A stretch of 64,000 nucleotides of DNA from positions 93 to 64,092 of the forward strand of contig JAXMHI010000003.1 in NCBI GenBank assembly GCA_046346885.1, read 5' to 3'. Below, piece after piece: positions 10,385-56,517 of this stretch; the stretch's first letter is position 1, and each line of letters opens with the position of its first letter. The translations under genes and the position numbers were made by a program. The DNA is from a bacterium (GTDB lineage Bacteria; UBA10199; JADFYH01). The notes beneath the pieces were generated by a model. That model made no database searches. It worked only from the letters and a program-made list of their open reading frames with translations, and was not told the DNA's origin.

Positions 10385-10400
10385 TGCAGGCCGAATGCCA
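10385..10400 (-). promoter_or_regulatory. sigma54 (-24/-12) promoter for 8844..10334
   Basis: The minus strand reads TGGCATtcggcCTGCA. GG-to-GC spacing matches the consensus TGGCAC-N5-TTGCW exactly. It lies about 50 nt upstream of the ATG at 10334. Confidence 0.65.
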
Positions 10401-15091: not shown

Positions 15092-15105
15092 TTTACAATT
15101 TGTAT
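15092..15105. promoter_or_regulatory. Candidate activator (UAS) palindrome TTTACAATTTGTAT
   Basis: ACA-N3-TGT core about 93 nt upstream of the sigma54 -24 element at 15191. Same core as boxes 15421, 51407 and 56502. Confidence 0.35.
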
Positions 15106-15190
15106 CCTTAAAGGTTACAACCCGCGCGATAAAAGTAATTCATCCCCGCCTTATTTTTAAAAACCTAAATATTTTCAATGAGTTAATTTT

Positions 15191-15206
15191 TGGCATTTCC
15201 ATTGCT
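15191..15206 (+). promoter_or_regulatory. sigma54 (-24/-12) promoter
   Basis: TGGCATttccaTTGCT, with exact consensus spacing. Confidence 0.65.
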
Positions 15207-15215
15207 TTTAAGAAG

Positions 15216-15398
15216 GGGTGCACACGCAAAGTCATGGGGATGACTTTGGATGGAAAAAACTGGCCTGGGGAAAATATAGAAGGATGGCAAAAGAATTGAG
15301 AAGTTTCTGGCCCGAGAAAGGCTCGGACAGAAAAAAACAACCTAAGCCCTCCTCACTGAAAACGGCCTTTGTCAAAAGCAAAGGCCGTTTTGTTTTTT
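15216..15398 (+). ncRNA. Candidate sigma54-dependent small RNA (about 180 nt), or a very small ORF transcript
   Basis: Bounded by the sigma54 promoter at 15191 and an intrinsic terminator at 15359..15398. Internal hairpins are AAGTCAT-GGGG-ATGACTT and CCGAG-AAAGG-CTCGG. An unpaired CCCTCCTCA lies just before the terminator. No convincing RBS-plus-ORF is present. Confidence 0.4.
15359..15398 (+). terminator. Rho-independent terminator
   Basis: 13-bp stem AAAACGGCCTTTG/CAAAGGCCGTTTT with loop TCAAAAG, followed by a TTTTGTTTTTT tail. Confidence 0.75.
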
Positions 15399-15420
15399 GG
15401 ATTATCTTGTGCACTCGAAT

Positions 15421-15434
15421 TATACATTTTGTAA
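15421..15434. promoter_or_regulatory. Candidate activator (UAS) palindrome TATACATTTTGTAA
   Basis: ACATTTTGT core about 72 nt upstream of the sigma54 -24 element at 15499. Confidence 0.35.
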
Positions 15435-15498
15435 ATAGATTGTGCGTTATGGAATCTAATAATTTTAATAAATCGAATAAAATCAATAAGTTAAAATT

Positions 15499-15514
15499 TG
15501 GCATCCATGTTGCT
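15499..15514 (+). promoter_or_regulatory. sigma54 (-24/-12) promoter for 15563..16000
   Basis: TGGCATccatgTTGCT with exact consensus spacing, about 50 nt upstream of the ATG. Confidence 0.65.
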
Positions 15515-15562: not shown

Positions 15563-16000
15563 ATGGCGACGAAAACGATGGGTTTAAGCTTTCATGACGG
15601 TAAATGTTACGCGCAGCAATTCGTGGATAATGGAAAAGGCGGAAAAGATTATCGTGAAGTGGAATGGGATTTAGCGAAGGGCAAGCCGGTGGTGCATACG
15701 CCGGAGAAAAAATCGGCGGAGATGGCGAAGGCCAAGGGCGGACTTTCCACTCTCGTGGGCGGCGGAAAACCCGCGACCACCCCTAAGAAGAATCTTTTCG
15801 ATCCTAAGCACCATAAACCGCAGTTCGCTTCGCCGACTTTCATGGCGGACGTGAAGGCGAATGCGACTCCCAACAAAAAGGGCAAGGTGGATGCTCCCGT
15901 GGTGAAACCGCTCACGGCCCCCGAAGTGACGCCCACCCCGATGACGAGATACGCGCTCGCCCACGGCACCTCGATCGGCTACGCGAAGAAGTCTGCTTAA
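15563..16000 (+). CDS. Lys/Pro-rich hypothetical protein (145 aa), no signal peptide
   Basis: ATG with an AAGGAG RBS 7 nt upstream. A terminator follows the ORF. I recognise no domain. Confidence 0.7.
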   Translation: MATKTMGLSFHDGKCYAQQFVDNGKGGKDYREVEWDLAKGKPVVHTPEKKSAEMAKAKGGLSTLVGGGKPATTPKKNLFDPKHHKPQFASPTFMADVKANATPNKKGKVDAPVVKPLTAPEVTPTPMTRYALAHGTSIGYAKKSA

Positions 16001-18503: not shown

Positions 18504-19016
18504 TTACATCTGCGGATCGGAAAGCGTCGCTTTCAAGGTCTTGAGCATTTGCGGATCGGAAAGCACCGTCTGCAAGGCCTTGATCATTTGGGGATCGGAA
18601 GCGGCCATCGTCTTCACCACGTTGTACATCTTCTCGTCGGCGAGCAGGGTGTTCACCGCGGTATCCTTGTCCATCTGGGGATCCGAAGAAGCGAACTCTT
18701 CTCCCTTGATCATCTGGGGATCGGAGGCCGTCAACATTTGAGGATCGGACGCGACGAGCATTTGAGGATCGGAAGAAACGGCGTTGGCCTTGATCATTTG
18801 GGGATCCGATTCCACCGTCTTTTCCAAGGGCAACATCTGAGGATCGGAATAAGCCCGCACCGCCTTATTCATTTGGGGATCCGAAAAGAATTGATTGAGC
18901 GCGCCGTAGAGAGTCGGTTTCGCCGCCCGAACCGTCGCTTGTCCTGAGAAGGCTTTTCCTTGGGCTCCCACCGTCGCAACCACTAAAGCTACTGCAACTA
19001 ACCACTTCCTGACCAT
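18504..19016 (-). CDS. Secreted repeat protein with 10 copies of the pentapeptide SDPQM (170 aa from the internal ATG)
   Basis: Signal peptide MVRKWLVAVALVVATVGAQG. An AAAAGGAGAAG RBS precedes the ATG at 19016. SDPQM recurs 10 times and the protein ends exactly in ...LSDPQM*. Confidence 0.8.
   Translation of the reverse strand: MVRKWLVAVALVVATVGAQGKAFSGQATVRAAKPTLYGALNQFFSDPQMNKAVRAYSDPQMLPLEKTVESDPQMIKANAVSSDPQMLVASDPQMLTASDPQMIKGEEFASSDPQMDKDTAVNTLLADEKMYNVVKTMAASDPQMIKALQTVLSDPQMLKTLKATLSDPQM
18507..18884 (-). repeat. Coding repeat: 15-nt unit TC(N)GATCC(N)CA(R)ATG, 10 copies, irregularly spaced
   Basis: On the plus strand, CAT(C/T)TG(C/A/G)GGATC(C/G)GA recurs 10 times between 18507 and 18884. 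Confidence 0.85.
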
Positions 19017-19069
19017 TTTACTTCTCCTTTTAACAAGGGTTATCAAAATCAACTGCTCCCCATTGCATA

Positions 19070-19085
19070 AGCAAATAATTTGCCA
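19070..19085 (-). promoter_or_regulatory. sigma54 (-24/-12) promoter for the SDPQM repeat gene
   Basis: The minus strand reads TGGCAAattatTTGCT with exact consensus spacing, about 55 nt upstream of the ATG at 19016. Confidence 0.65.
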
Positions 19086-19331
19086 AAACTTTTATTTTTA
19101 AAAAATGATATATTTTAATTAGTTATGAGTTTTTTGGAGAAAAGGGAAAGGGGAGTGAGTTCCCCATGGTAGGAGGGCAAGATTTGTTCCAAAATGTTAA
19201 TAAATAAATAATATTATATAGTTAAGTTGTTTTTTGTTCACAATTGAGCAAAAATGAAAATGATGGGCATACACCCCATTTTGAGATATCTTTTTGTAAA
19301 AAGTGAAAGATTTAAAGAGGTTGAGAGAGGA

Positions 19332-22300
19332 TTAGGGAGGAGGAAACTCAATCACCAAACGAAAGGTTCCATTGTATTCATCGGCCACATCCATATGGAC
19401 GTAAGTTCGAGAACAAGGGAGGGGTTGATTGCCTGAGGGAGTTCTCACGGATGCACCGGACATGACGATCGCATCGTTTTCCGCCACCGTGGAAGTAAAC
19501 TCACGCACGTTTCCAATCAAATCCAGTAGTCTTTGAATCCGGCCCTGCGCGTCCCGATATCCAAAAATGGAAAAGTCTCGGTAAAGGTCGGGGCCTAAAG
19601 GATGGGTGCCGATGGGGTGGGAATGGGTTCCTTTATCTAGATCGGCGTGTACCAGACGCGAAGCGAAGAAAGTTCTGCGGTAACGGTAACCCCATGGGAA
19701 GGACCAATCGAAGGTGTTGCGGGCGGCGATCTCTTTTTGTTCCGCAGAGACGATCTTGTAATTCCGTCGGTCGCGCACCGACCTCCAGTATCGATAAGCG
19801 TCCGCCGCTCGGTACGGAATTGCATGAATGGGTTGATTGTTCAAGATGGGGTCGCCACGGAGCGAGGGATGACTCGTGGGATCCGCAAGAGTAAAGATAC
19901 GATTTTGACCTTCTCCTTCGGACCGGATCCTCCAGTGGAACCGGGCGCCTTCGAACGCGGTTGCGAGAACCGATTCCCAGTCGGGGTTTTCGGGAAGGTT
20001 CCGGGGAGAGATCCGAGGTTGATCCCGCGGGATCAAATTTCTCAGCCGTTCAATGTGTCGGAAGGCCTCTTCGAATCGCCCTTGTCCGACCAGATGATTG
20101 ATTCCCCTCAATTGGCTTTCGATGAAGAGGCGGTATTCCCCCACGGTGATGGGATTGGAAATGGCGAAGGTGTTGAAGGAATGGGGGCGTTCCGGAAAAC
20201 TGATGACGAGGGCGGGGTCGTCGAAGCGATAGATATTATGTCCGATGACGCCTTTTCCGCCATGAACGAGTGAGAAGCCTTCGGGAACCGGCGGGGTCAA
20301 GCGCAGGTTCAAGTTTAGGGAACCCCGAGTGGCCGAACCCCGGTTTAAGATTCCTTGTCGAACTTGCGGAAGTGTGATGCGCAGAGGATAACGCATAAAC
20401 GCATAATCGGGATGCGATAGCTCGAGCACGTAGTACCCTGCCGGCAAGTTGAGTCGGTCTTGAATGTCGCTTAAGTTTCCTTCCAGAAGGGGAGCCCCTT
20501 CCCGGAAATAATCTTTTTCATATTCTTCGATGGGAATCACCCGCGCTTGGACATTTTCAGGGGTCATTTGGGGGTTTAAGTGGTCGGATATTTTTAATTG
20601 AACGCGGATTTGTCCTTCCAGCGCGTCCTTCATGCTGGTGGTGCGCTCGTTTTCCGTCGCCACGTCGTATTCGCGGATACGGTCGATGAGGGTTTGGCGC
20701 ACCTCGTCGGGCATCGTGTTGTCGGCATTGACGAGCCTCATCCAAGAGAGTTCGGCGATCATCTTTCTCGCCTCGGGCACGGGATCGGAATCGGTCAAGC
20801 GTCTGAGTTCCTGCACCGCGCTTTCCACCGCCTGGTCGAAGGCCGCCGGAATGTTCTTGAGGGCGTACAGAGGATCCAACATGCGTTTTTCCAAGTCTTC
20901 AGTGATCGGACGGTCGGTGCGATATTCACTCCAAGCGGCGTGAAGTTCTTGTTCCAGAGACCTGCGTCTTTCCAGCAGGCGGCGGATACGGATCATTTCG
21001 GCGCGGCCCCAAACAAGCAAAAGCGCCTCGCGTAATTTGCCGGCCGATTCAAAGCGTCGGGTCGGATCCGGGTCTAAGGCCCTTCGGCAGACTTCCTCGA
21101 TTTTATCGTAAAGTTCGAGTGGGTAGTCTCCCTGTATGACGTCCCGAAAGGCCGGGGGCTGCAGGAAGAAGTCGGGATGGGTGGAGAAGAAGCGTGCCTG
21201 TGACCCGTTTCTCCCATGGGTAAACGGGTTCTGCCCCGTTATCATTTCATACAGGATGGCACCCAAGGCGAAAACGTCGATGGAGCGCGGGTTTTCAATT
21301 TTCCGGTTTAGAAACCTCTCGGGGGCGATATAGCCTGGTGTTCCAAAAGAGACGCCCACCAGGGTAATGTCCTTTTCAAGGCGGTGAAAAAGTTCCGGAG
21401 AAACTTCTGGTCGGGGTTCGGCGGGAAGTTCCTCGAACGCTTTAGCCAAGCCCCAATCGACGATCCGGACCTCGCCGGTATCGGTGATACGGATATTGCC
21501 GGGCTTCAAGTCGCGGTGGACGATGCCGTCTCGGTGGGCGGATTCGATCCCCTCGCAAATGCGTAGAAAGATGTCGAGCTTCCTTTGGGCGCTGAGCGTC
21601 GACATCACGTCCGAGAGGTCGTTGCCGGGCAGGTATTCCATCACAGGAACGGTACGGCCATTGGGGAGCGTGATGAAGTCGTAGATCACGACCACGTGCC
21701 GTCGATCCATATTGGCGGTAATTTTTACCTCGTTGCGAAAACGAGCGTCCACTTCCACCGTATCTTTTTGGCTGCGATCCCGTTCGGGGCGCGGCACTTT
21801 GATCACCGCCAGACGCTCCAATTGCAGGTCTCTTACCTTGATCACGTGTCCGTAGCCGCCGGAGCCTAGATAATCCAATACTTGGTAGCGGCCTTCCAAC
21901 TCCATTCCCACTTGCAAGCCGGTTTCTTCCGGAGGAAGTCGCGTGACCAAGGATTGGGCTTCTTTTCGAGTGTCATGGTCGACGTCGGTCGGGTCTTGGG
22001 GGGCTTCCGGAGCTGGAGAAGGGGCCGCTTTTTGCCGAGGAACGGGAACGGCCACTCGTGTTTGGGCTTCTTGGGGGTCTTTGGCCGGGGAAGCAGCGGG
22101 GGAAGGAGGAGGAATTTCCGGGCGTTGTTCCACGACTTCCGCCGCCGGAGCGTCTAACGTGGTTGCGAGTTTCGGATCGGCGGGAGGAGTCGCCGGACGA
22201 GGGGGTGAGGGAGGAGAGTCCTTCCCCGCCAATTCGGGCGGACCGCCGACCATCGTAGTGGTGGCGGGTGCGTCGCGATTCGTGGGGAAACCGCTGTCCG

Positions 22301-23138
22301 CGGGTCCGTCGGGCTTATCCTTGTCATGGATGGAGGACATGGCGACGATGAGAGGACCCTTTTCCGGAAAAACTCGGTCTCCGCTTCTTCGTCCTTCGAG
22401 GTTCCCCCTCTGTCCGGTGGCGAGAGCCCAGGGAGCTCCTTCGCCTTCCGAATCGAAAAAGGAACTTCTTCCTTCCGTTTGGGGCGTTCGAAGGGTGAGT
22501 TCCAAGCCCCGTTCCAAGGCGGGAAGCCCCGGCGCGAAGGTGTGCACCAGGCTCATGCCGAAACTTAATTGCAAATTGGTGATTTCCGCGTGGAGAAATT
22601 GCTGGGCGAGCGTGCCTTCGGGCCCCGGAGAAATTCCCAACGCCGCGGTGGCGTGGTGGCCCAGCACCATGCCGGTGTCTTGCACGAAATGTTGAAGGAT
22701 GACGTTTTGGCCTTCGGCCAAGTGGCCGGCGAATTTCAAGGTTCCGAAACTGACGAACGAGTTGGCGAGCCCCTCGCGAAATCCGCCCCGGCCGTTCCAA
22801 CGCCAAAGATTGGGGTTGGAGGCGCCTTCGCCCGATAGGCCGAGCAGCGAGCGGTGGCTGGTTTCAAAGGCCAATACTTCGGCGCTTAATCCGATTCCGT
22901 AGGAAGCGGTTTGAATGAGGGACGCGGCTTGCCCCGCCCGGGAGGCCAAGGCCATCGTGCCGATTCGACCGAAACGGTAGGCAAGCCCGCCTATAGACAT
23001 GGCGGCCAAGCTTCTCCAATCGCTCGCCTGCTCCAAGAAGCCGCTGACCAAGCCATCCACTTGAGATTGGGCGGAACTCGGCTCCGCATAAGAGGCCAGC
23101 GTGTGAGAAGACAGCCTACTAAGAACCGTTTCCGTCAT
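19332..23138 (-). CDS. Family copy P3: N-terminal module, about 190-aa Pro-rich linker, Hanks Ser/Thr kinase, middle region, C-terminal FGE/SUMF1-like domain (1268 aa from the internal ATG)
   Basis: The start is moved to MTETVLSRL (ATG at 23138) by alignment with the other copies. Kinase motifs are GSGGYGHV, AVIKV, HRDLKPGN, DWGLA and GTPGYIAPE. The C-terminal HAIPYRAADAYRYW...FPWG...HPIG...GNVREF resembles FGE-sulfatase domains. Confidence 0.85.
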   Translation of the reverse strand: MTETVLSRLSSHTLASYAEPSSAQSQVDGLVSGFLEQASDWRSLAAMSIGGLAYRFGRIGTMALASRAGQAASLIQTASYGIGLSAEVLAFETSHRSLLGLSGEGASNPNLWRWNGRGGFREGLANSFVSFGTLKFAGHLAEGQNVILQHFVQDTGMVLGHHATAALGISPGPEGTLAQQFLHAEITNLQLSFGMSLVHTFAPGLPALERGLELTLRTPQTEGRSSFFDSEGEGAPWALATGQRGNLEGRRSGDRVFPEKGPLIVAMSSIHDKDKPDGPADSGFPTNRDAPATTTMVGGPPELAGKDSPPSPPRPATPPADPKLATTLDAPAAEVVEQRPEIPPPSPAASPAKDPQEAQTRVAVPVPRQKAAPSPAPEAPQDPTDVDHDTRKEAQSLVTRLPPEETGLQVGMELEGRYQVLDYLGSGGYGHVIKVRDLQLERLAVIKVPRPERDRSQKDTVEVDARFRNEVKITANMDRRHVVVIYDFITLPNGRTVPVMEYLPGNDLSDVMSTLSAQRKLDIFLRICEGIESAHRDGIVHRDLKPGNIRITDTGEVRIVDWGLAKAFEELPAEPRPEVSPELFHRLEKDITLVGVSFGTPGYIAPERFLNRKIENPRSIDVFALGAILYEMITGQNPFTHGRNGSQARFFSTHPDFFLQPPAFRDVIQGDYPLELYDKIEEVCRRALDPDPTRRFESAGKLREALLLVWGRAEMIRIRRLLERRRSLEQELHAAWSEYRTDRPITEDLEKRMLDPLYALKNIPAAFDQAVESAVQELRRLTDSDPVPEARKMIAELSWMRLVNADNTMPDEVRQTLIDRIREYDVATENERTTSMKDALEGQIRVQLKISDHLNPQMTPENVQARVIPIEEYEKDYFREGAPLLEGNLSDIQDRLNLPAGYYVLELSHPDYAFMRYPLRITLPQVRQGILNRGSATRGSLNLNLRLTPPVPEGFSLVHGGKGVIGHNIYRFDDPALVISFPERPHSFNTFAISNPITVGEYRLFIESQLRGINHLVGQGRFEEAFRHIERLRNLIPRDQPRISPRNLPENPDWESVLATAFEGARFHWRIRSEGEGQNRIFTLADPTSHPSLRGDPILNNQPIHAIPYRAADAYRYWRSVRDRRNYKIVSAEQKEIAARNTFDWSFPWGYRYRRTFFASRLVHADLDKGTHSHPIGTHPLGPDLYRDFSIFGYRDAQGRIQRLLDLIGNVREFTSTVAENDAIVMSGASVRTPSGNQPLPCSRTYVHMDVADEYNGTFRLVIEFPPP

Positions 23139-23228
23139 AAGAAAAAAAGGGAAATGCCTGAAAAATAAAAAATTATTCGATTGCCCTTCCTCTTCGGCAA
23201 CGCTTAAGAGAAGGTGCGAGGAAATTTT

Positions 23229-24370
<1,142 letters not shown>

Positions 24371-43716: not shown

Positions 43717-45712
<1,996 letters not shown>

Positions 45713-45982
45713 AGGGCATCTCCTCCTTAAAGGAATTTTCACTATTTTGGGTTAATAACCGGTTTTATTTTTGTCAGAGATAAAGGTTAACTCGGCGGAA
45801 CTTAAAGGCTTTCAATTGGTTGATAGATCTAACTTTGATTCTTTAAGGTCGATCGGAATTCAAGTTACGAATCGCTCCAACACCGAGCCGAGGGTGATAT
45901 AAACATTTGCTAGGGCTTGTCAAGAGGGCTTGTGGGGCAAAAAAACGGCTTTTTTTGAGGTGATAATGGGGGTGAAAGGGGG

Positions 45983-46262: not shown

Positions 46263-46544
46263 TTATACGATGAAATTCTTTTCCTTCACGATCTGCTTTT
46301 TAATCATCTGAAACACTTTTTGCCGGTCCATCTGACCGCTGGCGATTTGGGCCTGGTATTGTTCCATGAGCTTGCGTACTTGCTCGTCGATCTTGTCTTC
46401 TTCGAGCATGTTTTTGGTGACGATCTCGCCGATGCGCGAAAGGATTTTTTCCTCCGGCACCTTGAAGGTGGCGAGTTTTTTCGCCTGCAGGGCGCTCACC
46501 ACGAGACGGGAAATTTTGTCGATTTGTTCTTTCTTAAGGCGCAT
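46263..46544 (-). CDS. DUF507 family protein
   Basis: Internal ATG at 46544 (MRLKKEQIDKISRLVV...). The tracked longer ORF would overlap the upstream regulator gene. Confidence 0.65.
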   Translation of the reverse strand: MRLKKEQIDKISRLVVSALQAKKLATFKVPEEKILSRIGEIVTKNMLEEDKIDEQVRKLMEQYQAQIASGQMDRQKVFQMIKKQIVKEKNFIV

Positions 46545-46611
46545 GGGTGATAGGCATCCTGCCTTGTTTGAAGAGGGCTGGCAAGAAGGATTGTCGACGT
46601 TTTGATGGTTC

Positions 46612-49600
46612 CTATTTTTTTCCCATTCTTTCCTCAATATAAGCTTTCATCTCCATTCGACTCGTGGGCACACCGTGTTTTGTCATCTGGGTATAGAGAT
46701 AGCGTCGAGAAATTCCTAAATTTTTGGCGGCGAACCCCTTGTGATAACCGTTGTCGTAAAGGGCTTTGAGCAGCAGGCGTTTTTCTTCCGGCAAAGCGGA
46801 GGAGGGAGCGGTGATGAAGGGGGTTTTTTCTTCCTTCTTGGGGACACCAAACGGAACTTTCGCGCCTCCCCCGAAAAGCACCTTCTTGAAATGGAAAGAC
46901 TTGGGGATGATCTTACCCTTCTGGTGAAAGAGGGAAGCGGTGCGCAGCGTATTTTCCAACTCCCTTACGTTCCCCGGCCAGGGGTAATCCATTAAAAGTT
47001 CGAAGGACTCCGGCGCCATCTCGTAGGGTTCGCGTTTTTCTTCCTTCGCCGACTTCTTCAAGAAATGTTGGGCGAGCAGGGGAAGGTCTTCCAGCCGTTC
47101 CCGCAAGGGGGGCAAAACGACCGTTACGCCGTTTAAACGGTAAAATAAATCCTCCCGAAATTTTTTCTCGGCGATGAGGGCCTGCAGGTCTTGGTTGGAA
47201 GCGGAAACCACGCGCACATCCACCCGGATCACCTCATTGGAGCCGAGCGGACGGATTTCCCCCTCTTGAAGGAAGCGCAAGAGCTTGGCCTGCATGGCCC
47301 CGCTCATGTCGGCGATTTCGTCCAAAAAAATCGTGCCGCCGTTCGCGTATTCGAGGAGTCCTTTCTTGTCGCGGTCCGCATGGGTAAAGGAGCCGCGTTT
47401 GTGGCCGAAGAGCTCCGATTCCAAAAGGGTCTCGGGCAAGGCCGAGCAGTTCTCGCTGACGAAGGGTTTTTTCGCCCGGGAACTGTTGAAGTGCAGCACC
47501 CGAGCGATCATCTCTTTTCCCGTGCCCGATTCTCCGTAGATCCAAACGGGCACCTTCGTTTCGATGAGCCGGTCCACCAGCGACAGCACTTCGAGCATGG
47601 CGGGCGATTGGCCGACGATGTCTTTATATTGATGGATGAGTTTCTGCCGCTGGTCCTCCACTTCCCGTTTCAGGGCGATCATCTCGGAGGCCTGCACTTC
47701 CACGGCCCGGCTTAAACTTTCGTTGGCCTTTTCCAGTTCTTCGATCATCTGGGCTTTTTGAAGACCCAAGGCCGCCTGATCGGCGAACATTTGAAGGAGA
47801 TTCAAGTCGGCTCCCCGAAAAAGCCCCGTTTCGTAGCGGTGGTCCAAATACAAGGCGCCGAGGATTCCTTTCGTGCCTTTCAGCGGAAGGGCGAGGATCG
47901 ATTTCAACTCCAGTTGATGCACGCTGGGCGCCGCTTCGAAGCGCCGGTCTTGCAAGGCGTTGTCGGTCACCACCGCCTCGCCCGTCTTCATCGCCTCGCG
48001 GACGGAGGATAAGCTCAACGTGAAATCCTGGCTTTCCAGAAGCTCCTTCGCCACGTTGCGGGCCGCTTTCACCTCGAAACCGGGGAGGGGCCCCCGCGAA
48101 TTTTCGCTTCGGATCACGAGAAACCCCCGTTCGGCGTTCGAAAGTCCCATTGCAGCGTCCATGAGGCGGATTAAGACCTCGTCTAAGTTTGTGGAGCTTA
48201 AGATTTCTCTCGTGAGAGCGGTAAGCTTTTGCAAGGCGTCCATGTTTTTTCTCCCGGAGCTCCCCATTGAAAGAGGGGACGACGTTTTCTCCGTTCCTAA
48301 AATATATTTCTGGTAATCCGCCCGTTCCTCGAAAGAGATTTTAAAGGGATCGGGAAGAGTTTGGTAAGTTTCCGTTAAAAGGGTTTGAAGGGTAGGGGAG
48401 TCTTTTTCCAAAAAAGCCCTCAAAAGTCGTTGCTCCAAGTCCCAAGGTTCGGCGGGTCTCTTTTCGTCGAAGGAAAAAGGAATCCGGGGAAGGCGGGAGA
48501 GAAAATCGTCTCCTTCCTTGATGAGGTCTATTTGAAACCTTATTTCCTTTCGCCGTTGCGTAAAGGCCGGATCTTCCGTTTTTTGCGCCAAGGCTTCGCT
48601 GAAAGCTTGTTCCGATCTTTTGAAGCGCCCTATCGAGGCTTCCGCCAAGGCCAGTTGGAGAAGATTCAACCCCCTTTCGAAGGCATTTCCCAAGAAGGCG
48701 AAGATCTCACGGGCCTTCTCCAATTCCTCCAAGGCTAAATGGAAATTCGCCCTGCGGCAGGCCATGACTCCGATGTTTTGATGGACGCGGGCCAGCGAAA
48801 CGTCGTCCCGGTGTTCGAAAGCGACCTGCAGAGCCCGGGCGTAGGCATGGTCCATCGCCTCCATTTTTCCCAACTTTAAAGCTAAGTTTCCGCGTTCGAG
48901 GGCGATCGAAAAAAGACCCTTATGATTTTGAAGCGATTGAAAGATTTTTTCAGAGGTCTCCAGAAAACCTAAGGCGCCTTCCCAGTCTTTCCTCTGAACC
49001 GCCAAAAGGGCCTCGTATTGCAGTACCTCCGCTTGGGGCGCGCTTTCTTCAGGAAGAAGTGCGAGGGCCGCGGCGAAATGTTCTTGAGCGGATGAAAGCG
49101 CCTCGTTCTCCAGATCCAAACGTCCGAGTAAGGCATGGGCGCGGGCGAGAAAAGGGCGGTGGGATTCGCTTTGAGGGGCTCCCGCCTTCAAACACTCTTC
49201 CCATCGTCGCCGGGCTTCTTTCCCGTTTCCCATATTTTGGTGAAGTACACCGGTAATTTGCCAATACTTTATCGGGTTGAGCCTCAAAGGATCCGTGGGA
49301 AATTTCTCGAACCACTGTTCCAAAGTATTTAAGGCCTGCGAAAAAAGTCCGAGCCGACCATAGGCGTTGGCGATGAGGCGCAAGAGCATTTCCTGACCCG
49401 TCCACTCCTCGGTGAGGGAAAAACACTTTTCATAGAGTGCGATGGCGGAAGGATCTTCCTCGCGGAGGGTGTAAACATCGCCCGCCCGCAATGCCCAAGA
49501 GAGCCGCTGGGGATGATGCGGAACTCGTACGGCGTGATGGGCCAAGGCCAGACAAAGATCGGGAGGGAGATCTTGATTCGCCGGGATTTCTTTTTCCAGA

Positions 49601-51369
49601 AGGCGGAGCCACGCTTCGTGCGGAACCTCCGGGGGAACGGGGGAGCTTTGCAAGACCCTTTCCGCCTGAGGGGGGTGGGCGAAGCAATAGACTTCGCGTT
49701 CTCCCTCAAAATCCGTCCGGATGAAGCTTAAATGGCGAAGGGCTTGTAGCTTTTCACGGAGTTCCGCCGGCTTAAGACCCGTGAGGATCAGTAATTCTTC
49801 GAAAGCGGCACCCTGGAATGCGGCGGCCAAGAAGGCGAGGATCTTTTTTTCTTTCTCGCCCTGCCGACTCCACCGGTCCTCAAAGAGCTCTTCCGAAGTC
49901 TTGGAGAGGCCGATTCGTCGCAGCTCTGAGACGGTAAAGCGTTTCTTTTTTAAAATTCCGGAAAGTTGAATTCCGCGCGCCAGATCCGTGATCACCTGCG
50001 GATTTCCTTGGGAAAGCGCTTGGAGTTCTTGAAGTGCTTCGGGCGGGAACTCGCGGTTCAAAAGAGCCTTGAAGAGCAGGCCGGTGTTTCGAACGTCGAG
50101 ATTTTCGAGCTTGAGGTCGAGGACATGGGGCTGCCTCGCCAAATATAAGAAAGAACCCAACTGCGTAGGCTCTATTTTTTCGTCGTTGTATTCTAAGACG
50201 ACGGAGCCGGAAGGTTTCGAAGAGGAACGCAGAAACCGATACAGTTCTTCCCGATGGCTGGGTTTTAAGGTTTCGGCGGATGGAATCATGCGGACTTCCC
50301 CCTCCGCAAAACCTTCCAGGATTTCTTTCTTCGCGTGAGGGGGATGTTTCGTGGCCCGGGTTCCTTGAAGCGAAAGTTGGAAAAATAGCTCGCGCAAGAA
50401 ACGGCTTTTTCCCGTCCCCGTCAAACCGTGGAGCAACACGATGGCCCGCTGATTTTCCAGCCTTGTTTTTTGAAGGAAGTTGAAGAAATCCTCCCACTTT
50501 TTCTCCACTCCGAACATTTGAAAGGAATGGAGGACGTTTGCCTTGCTTTCCTCTTCGTTTTCCTCCTTCTCTTGCCGCAACGCCTCCCGGGCGTCCTTTG
50601 CCGATTGAAGACGTGAGGAAAGATCCGGTGCGATCATCCGTTCCACCACTCGAGCGGCTGTGGGAGACAGAGGGGGGCATAATTTTTTAAGGCTTTGGAC
50701 CTCGGAAGAGAACAAACCCTTTAGGTCTTTCGCGTCGCCGCGGGGGTGTCGCCCGGTAAAGGCTTGGTAGAAAACGGTGCCCAACGAGAAAAGATCGCTC
50801 GCCGGCAAACGCTCGCCGTCCATCGCTTCGGGGGCCATATAGGGAAGGGTTCCCCGGGGTTGGGAGGGAAGAGGGGAGGTGAAATGGTGCGAGACGGTGG
50901 CCAAGCCGAAATCCACCAATTTGAGACGCCCCTTTTCATCGATCAAGAGGTTCCCGGGTTTCAAATCCCCGTGAAGAACGCCTTGTCCGTGAAGATATTC
51001 CAGCGCATCCAAGGCTTCTTCCAGCCAGCGAACCATCGTTCGGGGCTCCGCGGAGGAAGCCGCGTCCAAGATCGGAGCTCCGGGTATGTACTCCATCCAA
51101 AAGCTCGGTTTTTTTTCCCTTGAGGAAGAAGGTTCCAACCCCTTCATCTCTTCACTTGTTTTCGAGAACCCCATGATTTCCACAAGCCCCGGATGTTTGA
51201 GTTTGGAAAGAAGATGAACCTCGCCCTCGAACAAAGGGAGCAGGGTGGGGGAAGAATTTTCTAAAATTTTTAAGGCGAAGACTTTTCCTTGCCCATCATA
51301 AGCCCGATAGACGGAACCCATGGCCCCCGACCCAACCAGTCGGTCCACTGTGAGAATGTCTTGAGACAT
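46612..51369 (-). CDS. Intact 1585-aa fusion regulator (EBP2): Ser/Thr kinase, P-loop NTPase, TPR-like repeats, GAF, sigma54-interaction AAA+ domain, Fis-type HTH
   Basis: Kinase motifs GSGAMGSV, FALKIL, HGDLKPGN, DFGLA and GTLPYMAPE. Walker A GLTGTGKS. GAF region. AAA+ motifs GESGTGKE, GSFTHA (47377..47394), IFLDEI and WPGNVRELEN. HTH FAAKNLGISRRYLYTQM. Confidence 0.9.
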   Translation of the reverse strand: MSQDILTVDRLVGSGAMGSVYRAYDGQGKVFALKILENSSPTLLPLFEGEVHLLSKLKHPGLVEIMGFSKTSEEMKGLEPSSSREKKPSFWMEYIPGAPILDAASSAEPRTMVRWLEEALDALEYLHGQGVLHGDLKPGNLLIDEKGRLKLVDFGLATVSHHFTSPLPSQPRGTLPYMAPEAMDGERLPASDLFSLGTVFYQAFTGRHPRGDAKDLKGLFSSEVQSLKKLCPPLSPTAARVVERMIAPDLSSRLQSAKDAREALRQEKEENEEESKANVLHSFQMFGVEKKWEDFFNFLQKTRLENQRAIVLLHGLTGTGKSRFLRELFFQLSLQGTRATKHPPHAKKEILEGFAEGEVRMIPSAETLKPSHREELYRFLRSSSKPSGSVVLEYNDEKIEPTQLGSFLYLARQPHVLDLKLENLDVRNTGLLFKALLNREFPPEALQELQALSQGNPQVITDLARGIQLSGILKKKRFTVSELRRIGLSKTSEELFEDRWSRQGEKEKKILAFLAAAFQGAAFEELLILTGLKPAELREKLQALRHLSFIRTDFEGEREVYCFAHPPQAERVLQSSPVPPEVPHEAWLRLLEKEIPANQDLPPDLCLALAHHAVRVPHHPQRLSWALRAGDVYTLREEDPSAIALYEKCFSLTEEWTGQEMLLRLIANAYGRLGLFSQALNTLEQWFEKFPTDPLRLNPIKYWQITGVLHQNMGNGKEARRRWEECLKAGAPQSESHRPFLARAHALLGRLDLENEALSSAQEHFAAALALLPEESAPQAEVLQYEALLAVQRKDWEGALGFLETSEKIFQSLQNHKGLFSIALERGNLALKLGKMEAMDHAYARALQVAFEHRDDVSLARVHQNIGVMACRRANFHLALEELEKAREIFAFLGNAFERGLNLLQLALAEASIGRFKRSEQAFSEALAQKTEDPAFTQRRKEIRFQIDLIKEGDDFLSRLPRIPFSFDEKRPAEPWDLEQRLLRAFLEKDSPTLQTLLTETYQTLPDPFKISFEERADYQKYILGTEKTSSPLSMGSSGRKNMDALQKLTALTREILSSTNLDEVLIRLMDAAMGLSNAERGFLVIRSENSRGPLPGFEVKAARNVAKELLESQDFTLSLSSVREAMKTGEAVVTDNALQDRRFEAAPSVHQLELKSILALPLKGTKGILGALYLDHRYETGLFRGADLNLLQMFADQAALGLQKAQMIEELEKANESLSRAVEVQASEMIALKREVEDQRQKLIHQYKDIVGQSPAMLEVLSLVDRLIETKVPVWIYGESGTGKEMIARVLHFNSSRAKKPFVSENCSALPETLLESELFGHKRGSFTHADRDKKGLLEYANGGTIFLDEIADMSGAMQAKLLRFLQEGEIRPLGSNEVIRVDVRVVSASNQDLQALIAEKKFREDLFYRLNGVTVVLPPLRERLEDLPLLAQHFLKKSAKEEKREPYEMAPESFELLMDYPWPGNVRELENTLRTASLFHQKGKIIPKSFHFKKVLFGGGAKVPFGVPKKEEKTPFITAPSSALPEEKRLLLKALYDNGYHKGFAAKNLGISRRYLYTQMTKHGVPTSRMEMKAYIEERMGKK

Positions 51370-51406
51370 GGGGTTATTTTAGTGGGAATAGGATAGGGAG
51401 TCCATC

Positions 51407-51422
51407 ATTCACATTTTGTGAT
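51407..51422. promoter_or_regulatory. Palindromic box ATTCACATTTTGTGAT upstream of EBP2 (candidate operator or autoregulatory site)
   Basis: TCACA-N3-TGTGA, 38-53 nt upstream of the ATG at 51369. The same 16-mer occurs at 56502..56517. Confidence 0.4.
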
Positions 51423-53043: not shown

Positions 53044-53080
53044 AGAAAAACTCAATCCCCCTCCCAGCACGGGAGGGGGA
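53044..53080 (-). terminator. Hairpin terminator after 53102..54901
   Basis: TCCCCCTCCC-loop-GGGAGGGGGA, with a T-rich tract downstream on the minus strand. Confidence 0.5.
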
Positions 53081-53101
53081 AGTCGCTGATGCGGGAGATC
53101 C

Positions 53102-54901
53102 CTATTCCACCTCAACCTTGGGATCGGGATCCTCGTGCCACACTTCTTGGCGTTCGGGGAGATTCGGAAAGTCCGCGCCCAGCACGTACTTCGTCTCCGA
53201 CCAAGCTTTCTTTGCGGAATTATTCACCTGGCTGGGTAAGGCCCCCTTGATCTTGATTTTCTTGGCATCCCCCGTGATGAAATAAGTGACCGTCTTTTTG
53301 GGGTCGCCGTTTTTCAAGACTTCCACCTTGTAACGCCCCTTTTCATCCTTTGTTACGTTCACCACGTCTCGAAAACTCGACGCAAAAATCGTAACTTCTC
53401 CGGAGGTGAAAATGTCGTGTTCCCGTACGGTGAGGGGGTCGTCGAAATAGGTGTGGAGGCTGACGTTCGTTGAATCCTGGCCGTTCGAGCCGTCATAGAT
53501 GGCCACGTCGTTTTCCAAGGCGTCCGGGATATTATCGTCCTTTGATTGAGGATTGACCGGCGCATCGGGACCTCCTGCTCCCTTACCGTTCGAATCTCCT
53601 ACGACATCCACCTTCGTGGCGCCCGGTTTCGAAGGATCGAGCTCATGGGAGGGATTCGATTTTTCCGGCGCCGGAACACCGGTAGGAGGCGTCGTCGAAG
53701 GTGCCGTCGATCCTGCTCCTGCGGGAGCGGAAGGAGAAGTGGCGGAGGTTCCGAAGACGGCTTTTTTAGCGACCGCATCGGGTGCACGCCCTTTCCCGGA
53801 AAGAGAAGGGGGGGTGCCTTTCGAAAGGTTGCCGAAATCGATTCGGCTTTTGTCGCCGGCGAAGTGGAGTTTTTTCACTAAGGCACCGTCGATGTCGATC
53901 GTTTCCTTTACCTTGTTGTTTTTGTAATCCTCGTCGTTCGCGTACACCTTCAACACATATTTCGAGGGAGGACCTTTCTCGTAATCCATCCGGAAATATT
54001 CGTCGTTCGACGTGGGGGTGATCGTCACCTCGCCGTTCGCCTTCACGCGGGTTTTTTTGCCGCTGCCGCTCGGAACGGGGGAGATGTCGAAATCTTTACC
54101 GTCATACACGCGGGTGTTTCCTTCCATTTTAGTGGGAGGATCTCCTTGCGGAGTTGTGGCGGATGTCTCGTCCGTCAAGTTTCCGAAATTCACTTTTTGG
54201 GAGAGAGGGCTTGAAGCGAGAGCCGTATCTGGGGTGAAGGGCTTTGAGTCTCCATCCGGCGTGAGAATCCGAATGTTGCTCGTCTCCTTGAAATCATGCT
54301 TTACGAATACGCGGCGACTGCCGTCGGGCAGGTTCACCGTGATTTTCAGCATCTTGGCGGGGGCGGGGAGAGAATCGTCCGCCAAAAGCTCCAACTGGCC
54401 GTTCGCATGAAAGGGAATGCGCAGGGTGAGATCGTCTTGAAAGAAATCTTTCTCGCGCGAATCGCCGTCGTGAAGTCGTACGGTCACGTCGGCGCCGTCG
54501 GTCCCGTCGTATTTTATCCGGGTGTTATCGCCCCAAATCACTTCTCCCGTTTGGTCCATCGGAGCATTTCCCATTCCGAGACCGCCCCCCATAAGACCTC
54601 CCAGGGGATCCCAAGAGGAAGAATCGTCGCCCATTTGCTGAAGATACTGATGGGCCGTGGCGAGATAAGAGTCGATCGTGGCCAAAGCTTGGGGGTCATT
54701 CAAGTGGGTCTGTCGGTAAGAGAGCAGCATCGCCTCGTAGCGGTGCATGTATTGGATGTACGCTTGGGTGGAGTCCCCCGAGCCGTACGAGGCATCGTAG
54801 CGGCCGTAAGAAGGTGCTGTGCCTGCGTATCCGGCGGTGTCGTAAGGATTCATTCCATAATCGGGAGCTGGATTCGAAACGGATGCTGAAACGGAACTCA
54901 T
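53102..54901 (-). CDS. Hypothetical 599-aa protein with no signal peptide and three apparent 85-aa beta-rich repeats
   Basis: AGGAGG RBS. The modules start IKYDGTDG, RVYDGKDF and AIYDGSNG. Each is followed by (A/S)xG(Q/E)(L/V)x(L/I) and a Lys-rich strand pair. Confidence 0.75.
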   Translation of the reverse strand: MSSVSASVSNPAPDYGMNPYDTAGYAGTAPSYGRYDASYGSGDSTQAYIQYMHRYEAMLLSYRQTHLNDPQALATIDSYLATAHQYLQQMGDDSSSWDPLGGLMGGGLGMGNAPMDQTGEVIWGDNTRIKYDGTDGADVTVRLHDGDSREKDFFQDDLTLRIPFHANGQLELLADDSLPAPAKMLKITVNLPDGSRRVFVKHDFKETSNIRILTPDGDSKPFTPDTALASSPLSQKVNFGNLTDETSATTPQGDPPTKMEGNTRVYDGKDFDISPVPSGSGKKTRVKANGEVTITPTSNDEYFRMDYEKGPPSKYVLKVYANDEDYKNNKVKETIDIDGALVKKLHFAGDKSRIDFGNLSKGTPPSLSGKGRAPDAVAKKAVFGTSATSPSAPAGAGSTAPSTTPPTGVPAPEKSNPSHELDPSKPGATKVDVVGDSNGKGAGGPDAPVNPQSKDDNIPDALENDVAIYDGSNGQDSTNVSLHTYFDDPLTVREHDIFTSGEVTIFASSFRDVVNVTKDEKGRYKVEVLKNGDPKKTVTYFITGDAKKIKIKGALPSQVNNSAKKAWSETKYVLGADFPNLPERQEVWHEDPDPKVEVE

Positions 54902-54940
54902 GATTTTATCCTCCTAAAATTTAGTTGATCCTTCGGGAGT

Positions 54941-54976
54941 CTTTAAAAACGTCCCGCGAAAATTCGCGGGACGTTT
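54941..54976 (-). terminator. Hairpin between 55002..56336 and 53102..54901 (terminator or attenuator)
   Basis: AAACGTCCCGCG-AATTTT-CGCGGGACGTTT followed by TTTAAAG on the minus strand. Confidence 0.55.
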
Positions 54977-55001
54977 CAGGGTAAGGGTGGGTTTAAGGTT
55001 T

Positions 55002-56336
55002 TTAAAAAAGATCCTTGATGTCTTTCCAAGCCTCTTTCGCCGCGTCTTTGGCGACGCTGATCATGGCGCCGTCTTGAGCTCCCTCATAGGCGCCGACGGG
55101 GCCGCCCAGGACGAAGCCGGTGACGGCGCCTTCCCAGCCGGCGTCAACGGCCGCGGATACGGTTTTTTTGAAAGTGCTTCGGTTGTCGTCATCTTCCGTC
55201 GGGTATTTGGCTTCGTTCATCCAGGAAGGTTTGTCGACTCCATGCGGAATCACCGCCTTGGGCAACTCCGTTTGCGGCCAGCCCGGCTCCTTGCTGAATT
55301 GGATTTGTCCCGTGGAGTTATTGACGACGTTGGAAGAGGATTGCCCCATCGTCACCACGCCCGGGTTGTTGTCGTCCGCCGTCGCCTTTGTGCCGTACAG
55401 GACCGTGAGAATTTTGGCCGTCTCTCCCGCCAACTGCGAACGGGCGTTCATTAGGGCCTTTCCGGCAGGGCCCTTGCCTTGGGTTTCGTCGTAGAGTTTT
55501 TTGAAGGAGGGACACACTTCCTTTTCCGGATCGTCGCTCTTTGCCTTGTCGTTGTATTTTTCACATTCGTCCTTGAGCTTGCCGGTCGCTTCGTCAAACT
55601 TCGCCGAGGCCGATTTCACTTCGTCCCTCATCTGCGTCAAGTTTTCGAAGGCGGGATCGTTTAAAAGCGCCGCCACTTGGGCATTGGGAGGTTGGGGGAG
55701 ATTCGCAGGGTCGAGATCGTATTTCTTGAAAAGGTCGACGATTTCTTCGTGAGAAAGGCCCGTCGTTTCTTCCATTTTTTTAACCGTCGAAGGTTTTGTG
55801 TTCGCGGCGTTTACTTTTTCTTGGAAGGTCTTGAATTGTTCCTGCACGTCCTTTCGGTTCGGATGGAGCTCCATCTGGTGAAGAAGCTTTCGCCCCTCCG
55901 ATTGAAAAGCCTCTTTCTCTTCTTCGTCCAAGTTTTTCATGCCTTCGATCTCTGAGATAAACTGTTCGGCGCTGTCTTGAAAAACACCGTCACGCTCCCC
56001 GCTTTCCAGGCTCTCCGCTTGGAGCGCATAAATTTTCCCCGCCAAGGCTTGGGGTAGAGGACCTTTTTGGTGGCCGATCTCCGCCAGAAGTTTCGGGACT
56101 TCGCGATTTTGAGGGGCTGAAGATTGAAGATCCTTCAATAAACTTCTTGCGTCTTCGTAGGTGAGAGGTACGGTGCCTCCGATTTTTTTCGAATCGCCTT
56201 GCGAATATCGGTCTTGCGAATCTCCGTCCTCAATATCGTTCAAGAAGTCTCCGTCTAACTCCCCAATATCCTCCATTTCCCAGTCGTCGTTTTGGGGTTG
56301 TGATCGGTATTGATTTCCATTCACGGCATTCGTCAT
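55002..56336 (-). CDS. Hypothetical acidic 444-aa protein, no signal peptide, Gly-zipper-like C-terminus
   Basis: Internal ATG at 56336 with a GGAGAGG RBS. The N-terminus is Asp/Glu-rich. The C-terminus is AVDAGWEGAVTGFVLGGPVGAYEGAQDGAM. Confidence 0.75.
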   Translation of the reverse strand: MTNAVNGNQYRSQPQNDDWEMEDIGELDGDFLNDIEDGDSQDRYSQGDSKKIGGTVPLTYEDARSLLKDLQSSAPQNREVPKLLAEIGHQKGPLPQALAGKIYALQAESLESGERDGVFQDSAEQFISEIEGMKNLDEEEKEAFQSEGRKLLHQMELHPNRKDVQEQFKTFQEKVNAANTKPSTVKKMEETTGLSHEEIVDLFKKYDLDPANLPQPPNAQVAALLNDPAFENLTQMRDEVKSASAKFDEATGKLKDECEKYNDKAKSDDPEKEVCPSFKKLYDETQGKGPAGKALMNARSQLAGETAKILTVLYGTKATADDNNPGVVTMGQSSSNVVNNSTGQIQFSKEPGWPQTELPKAVIPHGVDKPSWMNEAKYPTEDDDNRSTFKKTVSAAVDAGWEGAVTGFVLGGPVGAYEGAQDGAMISVAKDAAKEAWKDIKDLF

Positions 56337-56390
56337 ATTCCTCTCCTTTTTTAAACATCGGCCCACTAGCGGGCTTTCGAGAGAAATAAA

Positions 56391-56406
56391 AGCAAGCGGA
56401 ATGCCA
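56391..56406 (-). promoter_or_regulatory. sigma54 (-24/-12) promoter for 55002..56336 (and possibly 53102..54901)
   Basis: The minus strand reads TGGCATtccgcTTGCT with exact consensus spacing, about 55 nt upstream of the ATG at 56336. Confidence 0.7.
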
Positions 56407-56501: not shown

Positions 56502-56517
56502 ATTCACATTTTGTGAT
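56502..56517. promoter_or_regulatory. Candidate UAS palindrome ATTCACATTTTGTGAT
   Basis: TCACA-N3-TGTGA centred about 105 nt upstream of the sigma54 -24 element at 56391..56406. It overlaps the last codons of the PHP gene. Confidence 0.45.

Follow-up and report, generated by a model that had tools for sequence, protein, structure and literature searches.

Sigma-54-dependent activators are, in the textbook view, modular proteins that receive their input through a receiver, GAF, PAS, V4R or PRD domain. The GAF domain represses the AAA+ domain in NorR (PMC2941729) and in Myxococcus xanthus PexR (PMC12754779). STAND proteins are switches of another kind, which pass from a closed ADP form to an open ATP multimer upon inducer binding and carry effectors at either end; in bacteria they are mainly transcription activators and Ser/Thr kinases, and both MalT-type regulators and kinases of the STAND class have been described as having the layout effector, nucleotide-binding oligomerisation domain (NOD), sensor (PMC6468293). 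Here we describe a gene at 46612..51369 on the minus strand of a 64-kb stretch of bacterial contig JAXMHI010000003.1 (the window), whose predicted product would unite three signalling logics within a single polypeptide: phosphorylation of the Hanks type, ligand-driven oligomerisation like that of NLRs, and the remodelling of RNA polymerase by an AAA+ domain. With moderate confidence, we propose that it encodes a one-polypeptide signalling hub composed of a kinase lacking the arginine before the catalytic aspartate (non-RD), a STAND switch, a TPR sensor and a NifA-like activator, which would act from palindromic enhancers and have the sigma-54 promoter at 56392 as a target.

Domain layout of the 1585-residue protein

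The open reading frame (ORF) is uninterrupted across 1585 codons and its product of 1585 aa is a 100% match to GenBank P0001, 'MAG: sigma 54-interacting transcriptional regulator [bacterium]', where MAG stands for metagenome-assembled genome. The gene and the features of its product, including the helix-turn-helix (HTH), are as follows.

46612..51369, minus strand: intact gene for kinase, STAND NTPase, TPR, GAF, sigma-54 AAA+ and HTH (ORF; Pfam and NCBIfam matches)
50599..51348, minus strand: Hanks-type Ser/Thr kinase, residues 8-257 (Pkinase PF00069, E 1.3e-39)
50965..50973, minus strand: catalytic-loop HGD, residues 133-135 (translation)
49645..50517, minus strand: STAND NOD, residues ~285-575, made up of nucleotide-binding domain (NBD), helical domain (HD) and winged-helix domain (WHD) (AlphaFold2, Foldseek, conservation)
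50404..50427, minus strand: P-loop GLTGTGKS, residues 315-322 (translation)
48298..49629, minus strand: TPR-like alpha-solenoid sensor, residues ~581-1024, ~440 aa (TPR_12 in three stretches; model helices)
47761..48192, minus strand: GAF, residues 1060-1203 (GAF_2 E 1e-13, GAF E 1e-12; aligns with the NifA GAF)
47620..47760, minus strand: predicted helical linker of coiled-coil type between GAF and AAA+, residues ~1204-1250 (read from the sequence QKAQMIEELEKANESLSRAVEVQASEMIALKREVEDQRQKL)
46900..47619, minus strand: sigma-54 interaction AAA+ plus lid, residues 1251-1490 (Pfam: Sigma54_activat PF00158, residues 1251-1417, E 1.5e-69; AAA_lid_14, residues 1423-1490, E 2.4e-20)
47377..47394, minus strand: L1 loop GSFTHA, residues 1326-1331 (translation)
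46678..46785, minus strand: Fis-type HTH, residues 1529-1564 (HTH_8 23.2 bits, cut-off 22)

Every domain named in the original prediction, which had been made from the letters of this DNA, finds support in Pfam or in the structure model. Translation likewise places the GSFTHA loop and the GAFTGA loop of a second copy of the gene (copy 2, 14125..14142) where that prediction had put them, and the TPR-like region is present at ~440 aa, shorter than the ~500 aa first given.

The last 546 aa can be aligned from end to end with Azotobacter vinelandii NifA (9qq6_C, E 1.1e-78), GAF, AAA+ and HTH included. The NifA equivalog TIGR01817 scores 374.7 bits, under its cut-off of 528.85, so that the protein is NifA-like and not NifA, and family scans of the window proteins found no nif genes in the 64 kb. 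Within the AAA+ domain the set expected of an enhancer-binding protein is complete (Walker A, Walker B, sensor I, arginine fingers and sensor II), and Walker A GESGTGKE, the Walker B pair D1350/E1351, N1392, R1405, R1411, R1423 and R1425 are invariant in homologues. DNA binding is indicated by the HTH_8 match above cut-off and by -24/-12 promoters near orthologues, the individual sites assigned to the protein below being putative. Because these 546 aa cover the whole of NifA, the earlier picture, in which the signalling cassette had replaced the receiver domain of an NtrC-type activator, is inexact; judged by its sequence, the protein is a PknK/MalT-like kinase-STAND-TPR module joined in front of a complete GAF-type, NifA-like activator.

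The N-terminal module (residues 1-1045) was modelled with AlphaFold2 from a 40-sequence alignment, giving a mean predicted local distance difference test score (pLDDT) of 88.8 and a predicted template modelling score (pTM) of 0.79. In the model the P-loop domain has five strands (308-315, 339-341, 358-362, 388-395 and 416-421) and is followed by a helical domain, a winged helix (helices 523-546, hairpin 550-563) and 22 consecutive helices that continue to residue 1024, mostly with pLDDT above 90. The top structural match in the PDB (Foldseek) is 6mfv_A, with E 3.5e-13 over 761 columns, which is Pyrococcus (P. horikoshii) PH0952, a STAND protein with a TPR sensor. Walker A is kept as GxxGxGK[ST]R (G315, G318, G320 and R323, with K321 in 21 of 24 sequences), and a Walker-B-like hhhLE[WY]ND[DE] and a GxP motif (G455, P457) are conserved among homologues. 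Since the model best matches 6mfv_A and the P-loop and GxP are kept, we read the middle region as a true STAND NOD followed by a TPR sensor, a reading that the model supports and that bears out the STAND-like cassette proposed at the outset. The assignment came from the structure model: the P-loop region falls below the Pfam cut-offs (AAA_16 at 30.7 bits against 32.6, with nSTAND6 likewise sub-threshold), and a sequence search of residues 270-1045 against the PDB returned generic TPR proteins and no STAND.

The kinase part of the model matches the kinase domains of Mycobacterium tuberculosis PknB and PknA (Foldseek against the PDB, target template-modelling score 0.70-0.83), and the Hanks-type hallmarks are all present: Gly-rich loop, VAIK lysine, alpha-C glutamate, HxD, DFG, APE and the subdomain XI arginine. 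K34, H133, D135, N140, D153, P180, E181 and R253 are invariant in 24-40 homologues down to 21% identity, and across 40 sequences the Gly-rich loop, D153 of DFG and APE are invariant or nearly so, with E50 kept in at least 90%. The arginine that precedes the catalytic aspartate in RD kinases is replaced at 133-135 by HGD, which is present in both copies as originally claimed. HGD is found in 34 of the 37 nearest homologues (P0035 and P0037 have HRD, P0036 HCD), and in farther kinase-activator fusions it is mixed with HRD, HCD, HLD and HAD. Non-RD kinases are usually active without activation-loop phosphorylation. Because the catalytic residues are invariant across 40 diverged sequences and are those of a working kinase, the domain is very probably catalytically competent.

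A quite different account would make the kinase domain a regulatory or scaffolding module, either a pseudokinase or a nucleotide sensor, and the protein simply an activator with a large sensor. The dominance of non-RD HGD in the fusion family (those same 34 of 37), the replacement of HGDLKP by HGDLSP in many subfamily members, and the failure to find a partner phosphatase or FHA gene among the neighbours tested would all fit such a module. It sits badly with the near-invariance of the Gly-rich loop, K34, E50, D135, N140, D153, APE and R253 over so wide a range of identity, and with the activity that non-RD kinases generally show without a phosphorylated activation loop, and we consider it decidedly unlikely. 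Taken together, 24-40 homologues with identities of 21-57% show little or no variation in the catalytic residues of the kinase, in the P-loop and GxP motif of the STAND domain and in the catalytic residues of the AAA+ domain, a pattern that indicates purifying selection on what would be three enzymatic activities.

In an exhaustive search with residues 1-1045, the N-terminal module was matched over its full length by 32 clusters (at 50% identity). Twenty-four of them are 1425-1704 aa long, enough for the activator half, and the other eight are 972-1266 aa, several stopping near residue 1010, at the module boundary; P0098 and P0106 have the kinase, TPR and GAF and no AAA+ domain. These lengths and domain contents support a modular joint between the N-terminal module and the activator. 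Sequence clusters with this architecture number in the dozens and span several phyla, the bacteria concerned being mostly uncultured. Its sources include MAGs labelled Bradymonadales, Polyangiaceae, Myxococcales, Rhodothermales, Calditrichia, KSB1, Nitrospirales and Edwardsbacteria. The matches listed from a scan of species-representative genomes lack the clade with histidine in the loop (the His-loop clade), and the scan shows the spread of the general architecture, not of the clade.

The GSFTHA loop and candidate sigma-54 targets

The original prediction singled out the GSFTHA of the intact copy as a variant of the canonical GAFTGA of the sigma-54-contacting loop. The puzzle of a defective loop dissolves on comparison with relatives. 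GSFTHA keeps the phenylalanine and threonine of GAFTGA and has histidine for the second glycine. G[AS]FTHA is the family norm: of the 37 nearest homologues, most of them full length and all at 31-57% identity, 36 carry it and one has glutamine at position 5. The surrounding segment ESELFGHK[KR]G[AS]FTHA is nearly unchanged across the same 37. GAFTGA-type loops appear in more distant kinase-activator fusions, and among the 80 species-representative-genome loci listed there are one GSFTHA, six GAFTDA and three GAFTSA. Position 5 is, to judge from these alignments, naturally variable, and histidine there is rare yet not unique: a regulome study of Desulfovibrio vulgaris recorded GAFTHA in DVU2894 among the variants expected to retain activation (PMC4641369). 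As the histidine is fixed over large divergence alongside fixed AAA+ catalytic residues, we read the His-loop as a functional feature and not a lesion.

We next considered sigma-54 promoters, using the pattern TGGCAC-N5-TTGC with at most one mismatch, for which shuffled sequences give a chance level of ~0.06 matches/kb. Seven orthologue loci were fetched (L081-L086 and L088). In five of them a sigma-54 promoter lies within 300 nt upstream of the gene, either divergent from it (L081, L085) or co-directional with it (L082, L083, L088). Because shuffles give so few matches, the association of His-loop genes with sigma-54 promoters is far beyond chance. The window itself contains five sites at the same threshold, 15191(+), 15499(+), 19071(-), 19177(-) and 56392(-). 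Their number alone is not significant, since five or more arise in 19 of 100 shuffles; all five are intergenic and correctly oriented, with AT-rich DNA before each. The features that concern the intact gene most directly are these.

51376..51421, minus strand: own promoter region, with palindrome TCACAAAATGTGAAT (51407..51421) abutting a sigma-70-like TGGACT-17-TAAAAT (51404..51376)
56502..56516, minus strand: 15-mer palindrome, 96-110 nt upstream of promoter 56392 (exact repeat)
56392..56406, minus strand: sigma-54 promoter TGGCATTCCGCTTGC (pattern scan)
53056..56366, minus strand: candidate target operon, genes 55002..56366 and 53102..54901, of no known family (ORFs)
53080..53056, minus strand: strong terminator closing the candidate operon (terminator prediction)

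The 15-mer TCACAAAATGTGAAT, which holds TCACA-N3-TGTGA, occurs exactly twice in the window. Matches to the derived pattern ACAAAATGWGAAY (at most one mismatch) number seven in ~190 kb, and five of these fall either at the two window sites or just ahead of the orthologue genes of L081, L086 and L088; L081 has in addition six tandem TCACA half-sites between the gene and its divergent sigma-54 promoter. The palindrome at 51407..51421 is a candidate operator at which the protein probably binds, which would amount to autoregulation. No Pfam or NCBIfam family was found for the genes placed behind sigma-54 promoters, including those of the candidate operon, whose 454-aa product has a homologue (E 1e-12) in L086, encoded ~4 kb upstream of the activator orthologue.

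These data bear on whether the GSFTHA protein works with sigma-54 at all. It might be an ATP-dependent repressor, a sigma-70 activator, or mainly a kinase with a localising DNA-binding tail: the palindrome at the sigma-70-like promoter of its own gene points at the least to repression of that promoter, and histidine at position 5 is rare (one of the 80 loci listed). Second-glycine substitutions in model activators can reportedly abolish activation, older work on NtrC mutants being said to have found the ATPase left, and Rhodobacter NtrC is said to use a sigma-70-type polymerase. Some activators are also reported to be dual repressor-activators, PexR being one (PMC12754779). Against this stand the strict conservation of the loop phenylalanine and threonine and of the flanking ESELFGH, the invariance of all ATPase residues, the enrichment of sigma-54 promoters beside orthologue genes in five of seven loci, the position of the palindrome at a typical enhancer distance from promoter 56392, and the occurrence of aspartate, serine and histidine at position 5 of otherwise normal activators (PMC4641369). 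We therefore give sigma-54 independence the lowest standing of the alternatives considered here, and retain sigma-54-dependent activation as the probable role of the intact copy.

Several further observations concern the surroundings of the gene and its orthologues. In L082 (871..975), L083 (5853..5950) and L088 (5852..5950) the sigma-54 promoter is followed by a conserved ~80-nt transcript (AGAAAAT..CCCCAACC..GC hairpin, with compensatory changes and a T-run; 82% identical across the three), and then by a TTGAC-type sigma-70 promoter for the activator gene. The element resembles a small RNA or leader that is conserved and depends on sigma-54, and it is absent upstream of the intact gene in the window. 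One to three convergent genes of ~240-290 aa, of no Pfam family and mutually homologous (E to 1e-26), follow the activator in L082, L083 and L086; L088 has the same arrangement, seen by layout and outside the homology comparison, and the window has no counterpart downstream of its activator. Immediately downstream of the intact gene is instead a DUF507 gene (46263..46637, minus strand), followed by groES (45407..45742) and groEL (43717..45387), an arrangement not kept in the orthologue loci. The listed TTG start of the DUF507 gene overlaps the activator stop by 26 nt; its true start is probably the methionine at residue 32 of the listed translation (~46544), where the Pfam match begins.

Copy 2 and the promoters near it

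The same domain order recurs elsewhere in the window, on the opposite strand and close to four of the five sigma-54 promoter-like sites.

10550..15079, plus strand: copy 2, same domain order, split over three listed ORFs (ORFs, Pfam)
10550..13471, plus strand: copy 2 kinase-STAND-TPR ORF, 973 codons, intact
14125..14142, plus strand: copy 2 GAFTGA loop (translation)
15094..15205, plus strand: palindrome TACAATTTGTA (15094..15104) and sigma-54 promoter TGGCATTTCCATTGC (15191..15205)
15423..15513, plus strand: palindrome TACATTTTGTA (15423..15433) and sigma-54 promoter TGGCATCCATGTTGC (15499..15513), upstream of ORF 15563..16000
19071..19191, minus strand: pair of sigma-54-like promoters (19071..19085; 19177..19191) preceding the SDPQM-repeat gene 18504..19052

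Copy 2 is ~25-29% identical in its N-terminal part and ~40% identical in its C-terminal part to P0002-P0009, which are close orthologues of the intact gene (copy 1); its own best homologue, P0051, is 35-42% identical and combines HGD with GAFTGA. With identity to these orthologues of only ~25-40%, the two copies appear from these comparisons to be old paralogues from different subfamilies. The gene is thus present twice, as had been noted, in the sense that a second copy has the same domain order, and not as a recent duplicate.

That copy 2 is frameshifted also holds, with seven frame changes rather than one. Three-frame inspection against homologues places them near 13400, 14400, 14425, 14475, 14570, 14650 and 14988. 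The first is inside the GAF; the compensating pair ~14400/14425 turns the sensor II motif IPPLRE[KR] into FRRCARK; the pair ~14475/14570 garbles ~33 residues and breaks WPGNVRELEN; and the change at ~14988 precedes the last Fis-type helix-turn-helix, which ends at 15079. All seven lie within the last 1.7 kb (GAF, AAA+, lid and HTH) and none in the 2.9-kb N-terminal ORF. By our own calculation, the chance that seven random events in 4.5 kb would all strike the last 37% is ~0.001. No frame changes were seen in four other ORFs of 929-1869 aa (~17 kb in total), and the housekeeping genes of the window are intact. Most likely, the activator half of copy 2 has become a pseudogene, and the N-terminal ORF, which is still open, is possibly expressed.

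Should the frame changes be assembly or sequencing errors in the MAG, both copies would be functional and the GAFTGA copy would be the main activator of 15191, 15499, 19071 and 19177. Three of the seven do fall at short homopolymers (G4 at ~13400, G5 at ~14475 and A5 at ~14650), and two pairs compensate, so that ORF 13201..14829 remains open and Walker A, GAFTGA, Walker B and the arginine fingers can be read in frame. Insertions and deletions are mixed, however, and the lost G of a GTG at ~14570 and the change at ~14988 are off homopolymers. Errors would moreover have had to crowd into 1.7 kb, with none in the N-terminal ORF, the other large ORFs or the housekeeping genes, and to have struck both sensor II and WPGNVRELEN. 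The promoters add a point in favour of a working copy 2: TACA-N3-TGTA occurs only twice in the window, 66-97 nt upstream of 15191 and 15499, which directly follow copy 2, and 0 of 100 shuffles give two occurrences, so that it resembles an enhancer dedicated to that copy. Weighing these observations, we think an artefact improbable and keep to the view that the activator half of copy 2 has decayed. The question first raised, of which copy activates the promoters, is then largely answered, the GAFTGA copy being broken seven times and the GSFTHA copy intact, with orthologues beside sigma-54 promoters. The enhancers of the two paralogues would differ in type and have the core ACA-W3-TGT in common, and promoter 56392 would belong to the intact copy.

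Other features lie near copy 2. No ORF was found downstream of promoter 15191; there is instead a ~190-nt structured RNA (15191..15410, plus strand; minimum free energy -58.8 kcal/mol, z -2.9) that ends in a 14-bp hairpin and U-run at ~15360..15405 and resembles a sigma-54-dependent small RNA directly after copy 2. None of the small-RNA candidates, at this position or in the orthologue loci, matched an Rfam family. The gene at 18504..19052 (minus strand) encodes 182 aa with a signal-peptide-like start and ~12 copies of SDPQM(I/L)K, and has no real family match. A possible sixth sigma-54 promoter, TGGCATTCGGCCTGC, with two mismatches, is located at 10386..10400 (minus strand), 52 nt upstream of gene 8844..10334; it points away from copy 2, from which a very AT-rich spacer separates it. 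The copy-2-like gene of L087 (P0051) likewise has a divergent sigma-54 promoter; comparison of the divergent genes, 8844..10334 and that of L087, found no homology. A third large Ser/Thr kinase (19332..23240, minus strand; 1302 aa) is of the RD type (HRDLKPGN); its N-terminal half is rich in Pro and Ala, and its long C-terminal region has no Pfam match. Together with the two fusion genes it makes the window unusually rich in Hanks-type kinases. The 1869-aa product of ORF 401..6010 (minus strand) matches no Pfam family at E 1e-4.

Proposed mechanism and comparison with known systems

The order of steps in the mechanism that we propose is modelled on STANDs (PMC6468293) and on the GAF-type activators NorR and PexR. 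At rest, the STAND core would be closed and ADP-bound, and the GAF domain and linker would keep the AAA+ domain non-hexameric. The TPR sensor would then bind a ligand or partner protein, with the GAF domain perhaps taking a second, small-molecule signal, and sensor binding would open the STAND core, allow exchange of ADP for ATP and lead to multimerisation. This would raise the local concentration of the C-terminal halves, such that the AAA+ ring could assemble on ACA-W3-TGT palindromic enhancers, and the GSFTHA L1 loop, with its critical phenylalanine and threonine kept, would engage sigma-54 and open promoters such as 56392 (minus strand). The clustered non-RD kinase domains, which should need no activation-loop phosphate, may phosphorylate in trans, either the protein itself or other proteins, as a second output. 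The same palindrome at the gene's own sigma-70-type promoter would probably be bound, giving autoregulation. Copy 2 would be an old paralogue of the GAFTGA subfamily in which the activator half has decayed and the kinase-STAND-TPR ORF is still open.

A number of points weigh against this proposal. What the sensor binds, what the kinase phosphorylates, which DNA site is used and in what order the steps occur are all inferred. The Walker B of the STAND domain, LE[WY]ND[DE], is atypical, and NTP hydrolysis by it is not assured. Tolerance of the loop histidine is argued from conservation and one comparative-genomics paper, and has the reported loss of activation in NtrC mutants to contend with. 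As regards DNA sites, no sigma-54 promoter lies directly beside the intact gene of the window, the closest being 5 kb upstream, and L084 and L086 have no adjacent one either. The palindrome motif is absent in L082, L083 and L085; in the window it occurs only twice, where by our own estimate ~4 repeated 15-mer pairs are expected in 64 kb. Orthologue neighbourhoods are poorly conserved and mostly of no known function, synteny being weak, local and confined to the closest relatives.

In a bolder version, STAND multimerisation would directly template the sigma-54 AAA+ ring and switch on the kinase by clustering, giving two coupled NTPase rings with two outputs; the clade-fixed histidine would be a specificity or regulatory determinant, for example a loop lock controlled by the GAF domain or kinase, or a match to a diverged sigma-54 Region I. 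This extension is speculative and we rate its prospects as low. If true, it would add a hitherto undescribed way of controlling enhancer-binding proteins.

What the locus offers is a set of defined, testable parts: the protein, its candidate enhancers and its candidate target promoters. The clade-wide change of the second glycine to histidine is a natural experiment on the GAFTGA loop, and copy 2 may illustrate a route of decay in which the activator half is lost and the kinase-STAND half is retained. The original prediction had allowed that the architecture might be a common family, already characterised. It is indeed recurrent and automatically annotated under generic names; no experimental characterisation was found, literature searches for kinase-sigma-54-activator fusions returning no paper that describes or tests the architecture. 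The parts are all of known kinds (NifA-like activators, PknK/MalT-like STAND kinases, loop variants) and it is their combination that is uncharacterised. Kinase-sigma-54 fusions are said to be mentioned either in the 2008 myxobacterial kinome paper of Perez or in the Sorangium genome paper.

Among described systems, the FHA-domain sigma-54 activators of M. xanthus, which Jelsbak, Givskov and Kaiser reportedly showed in 2005 to be controlled by Ser/Thr kinases in trans, similarly tie Hanks-type kinase signalling to sigma-54 activators; there, kinase and activator are separate proteins coupled by FHA, whereas the protein described here combines both in one chain and lacks an FHA domain. D. vulgaris DVU2894 has the same histidine at loop position 5 in a single-component sigma-54 activator with GAFTHA, and is compared here by its loop only, its flagellar regulon being predicted and not proven (PMC4641369). 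With NifA, NorR, FhlA and PexR the protein shares the order GAF, linker, AAA+, HTH and has all the AAA+ motifs; unlike NifA and the other GAF-type activators, it has 1040 extra N-terminal residues, a GSFTHA loop and no nif genes nearby. With the PknK/MalT-type STANDs, such as PH0952 (6mfv), it shares an N-terminal effector, a NOD (NBD-HD-WHD) and a TPR sensor, although its sequence similarity to solved STANDs is undetectable. Several homologues are called PknK, after the M. tuberculosis protein, by the JGI pipeline, which is a pipeline name only. A sigma-54 AAA+ output is lacking in both PknK and MalT, whereas the protein described here appears to carry effectors at both ends and a second NTPase ring.

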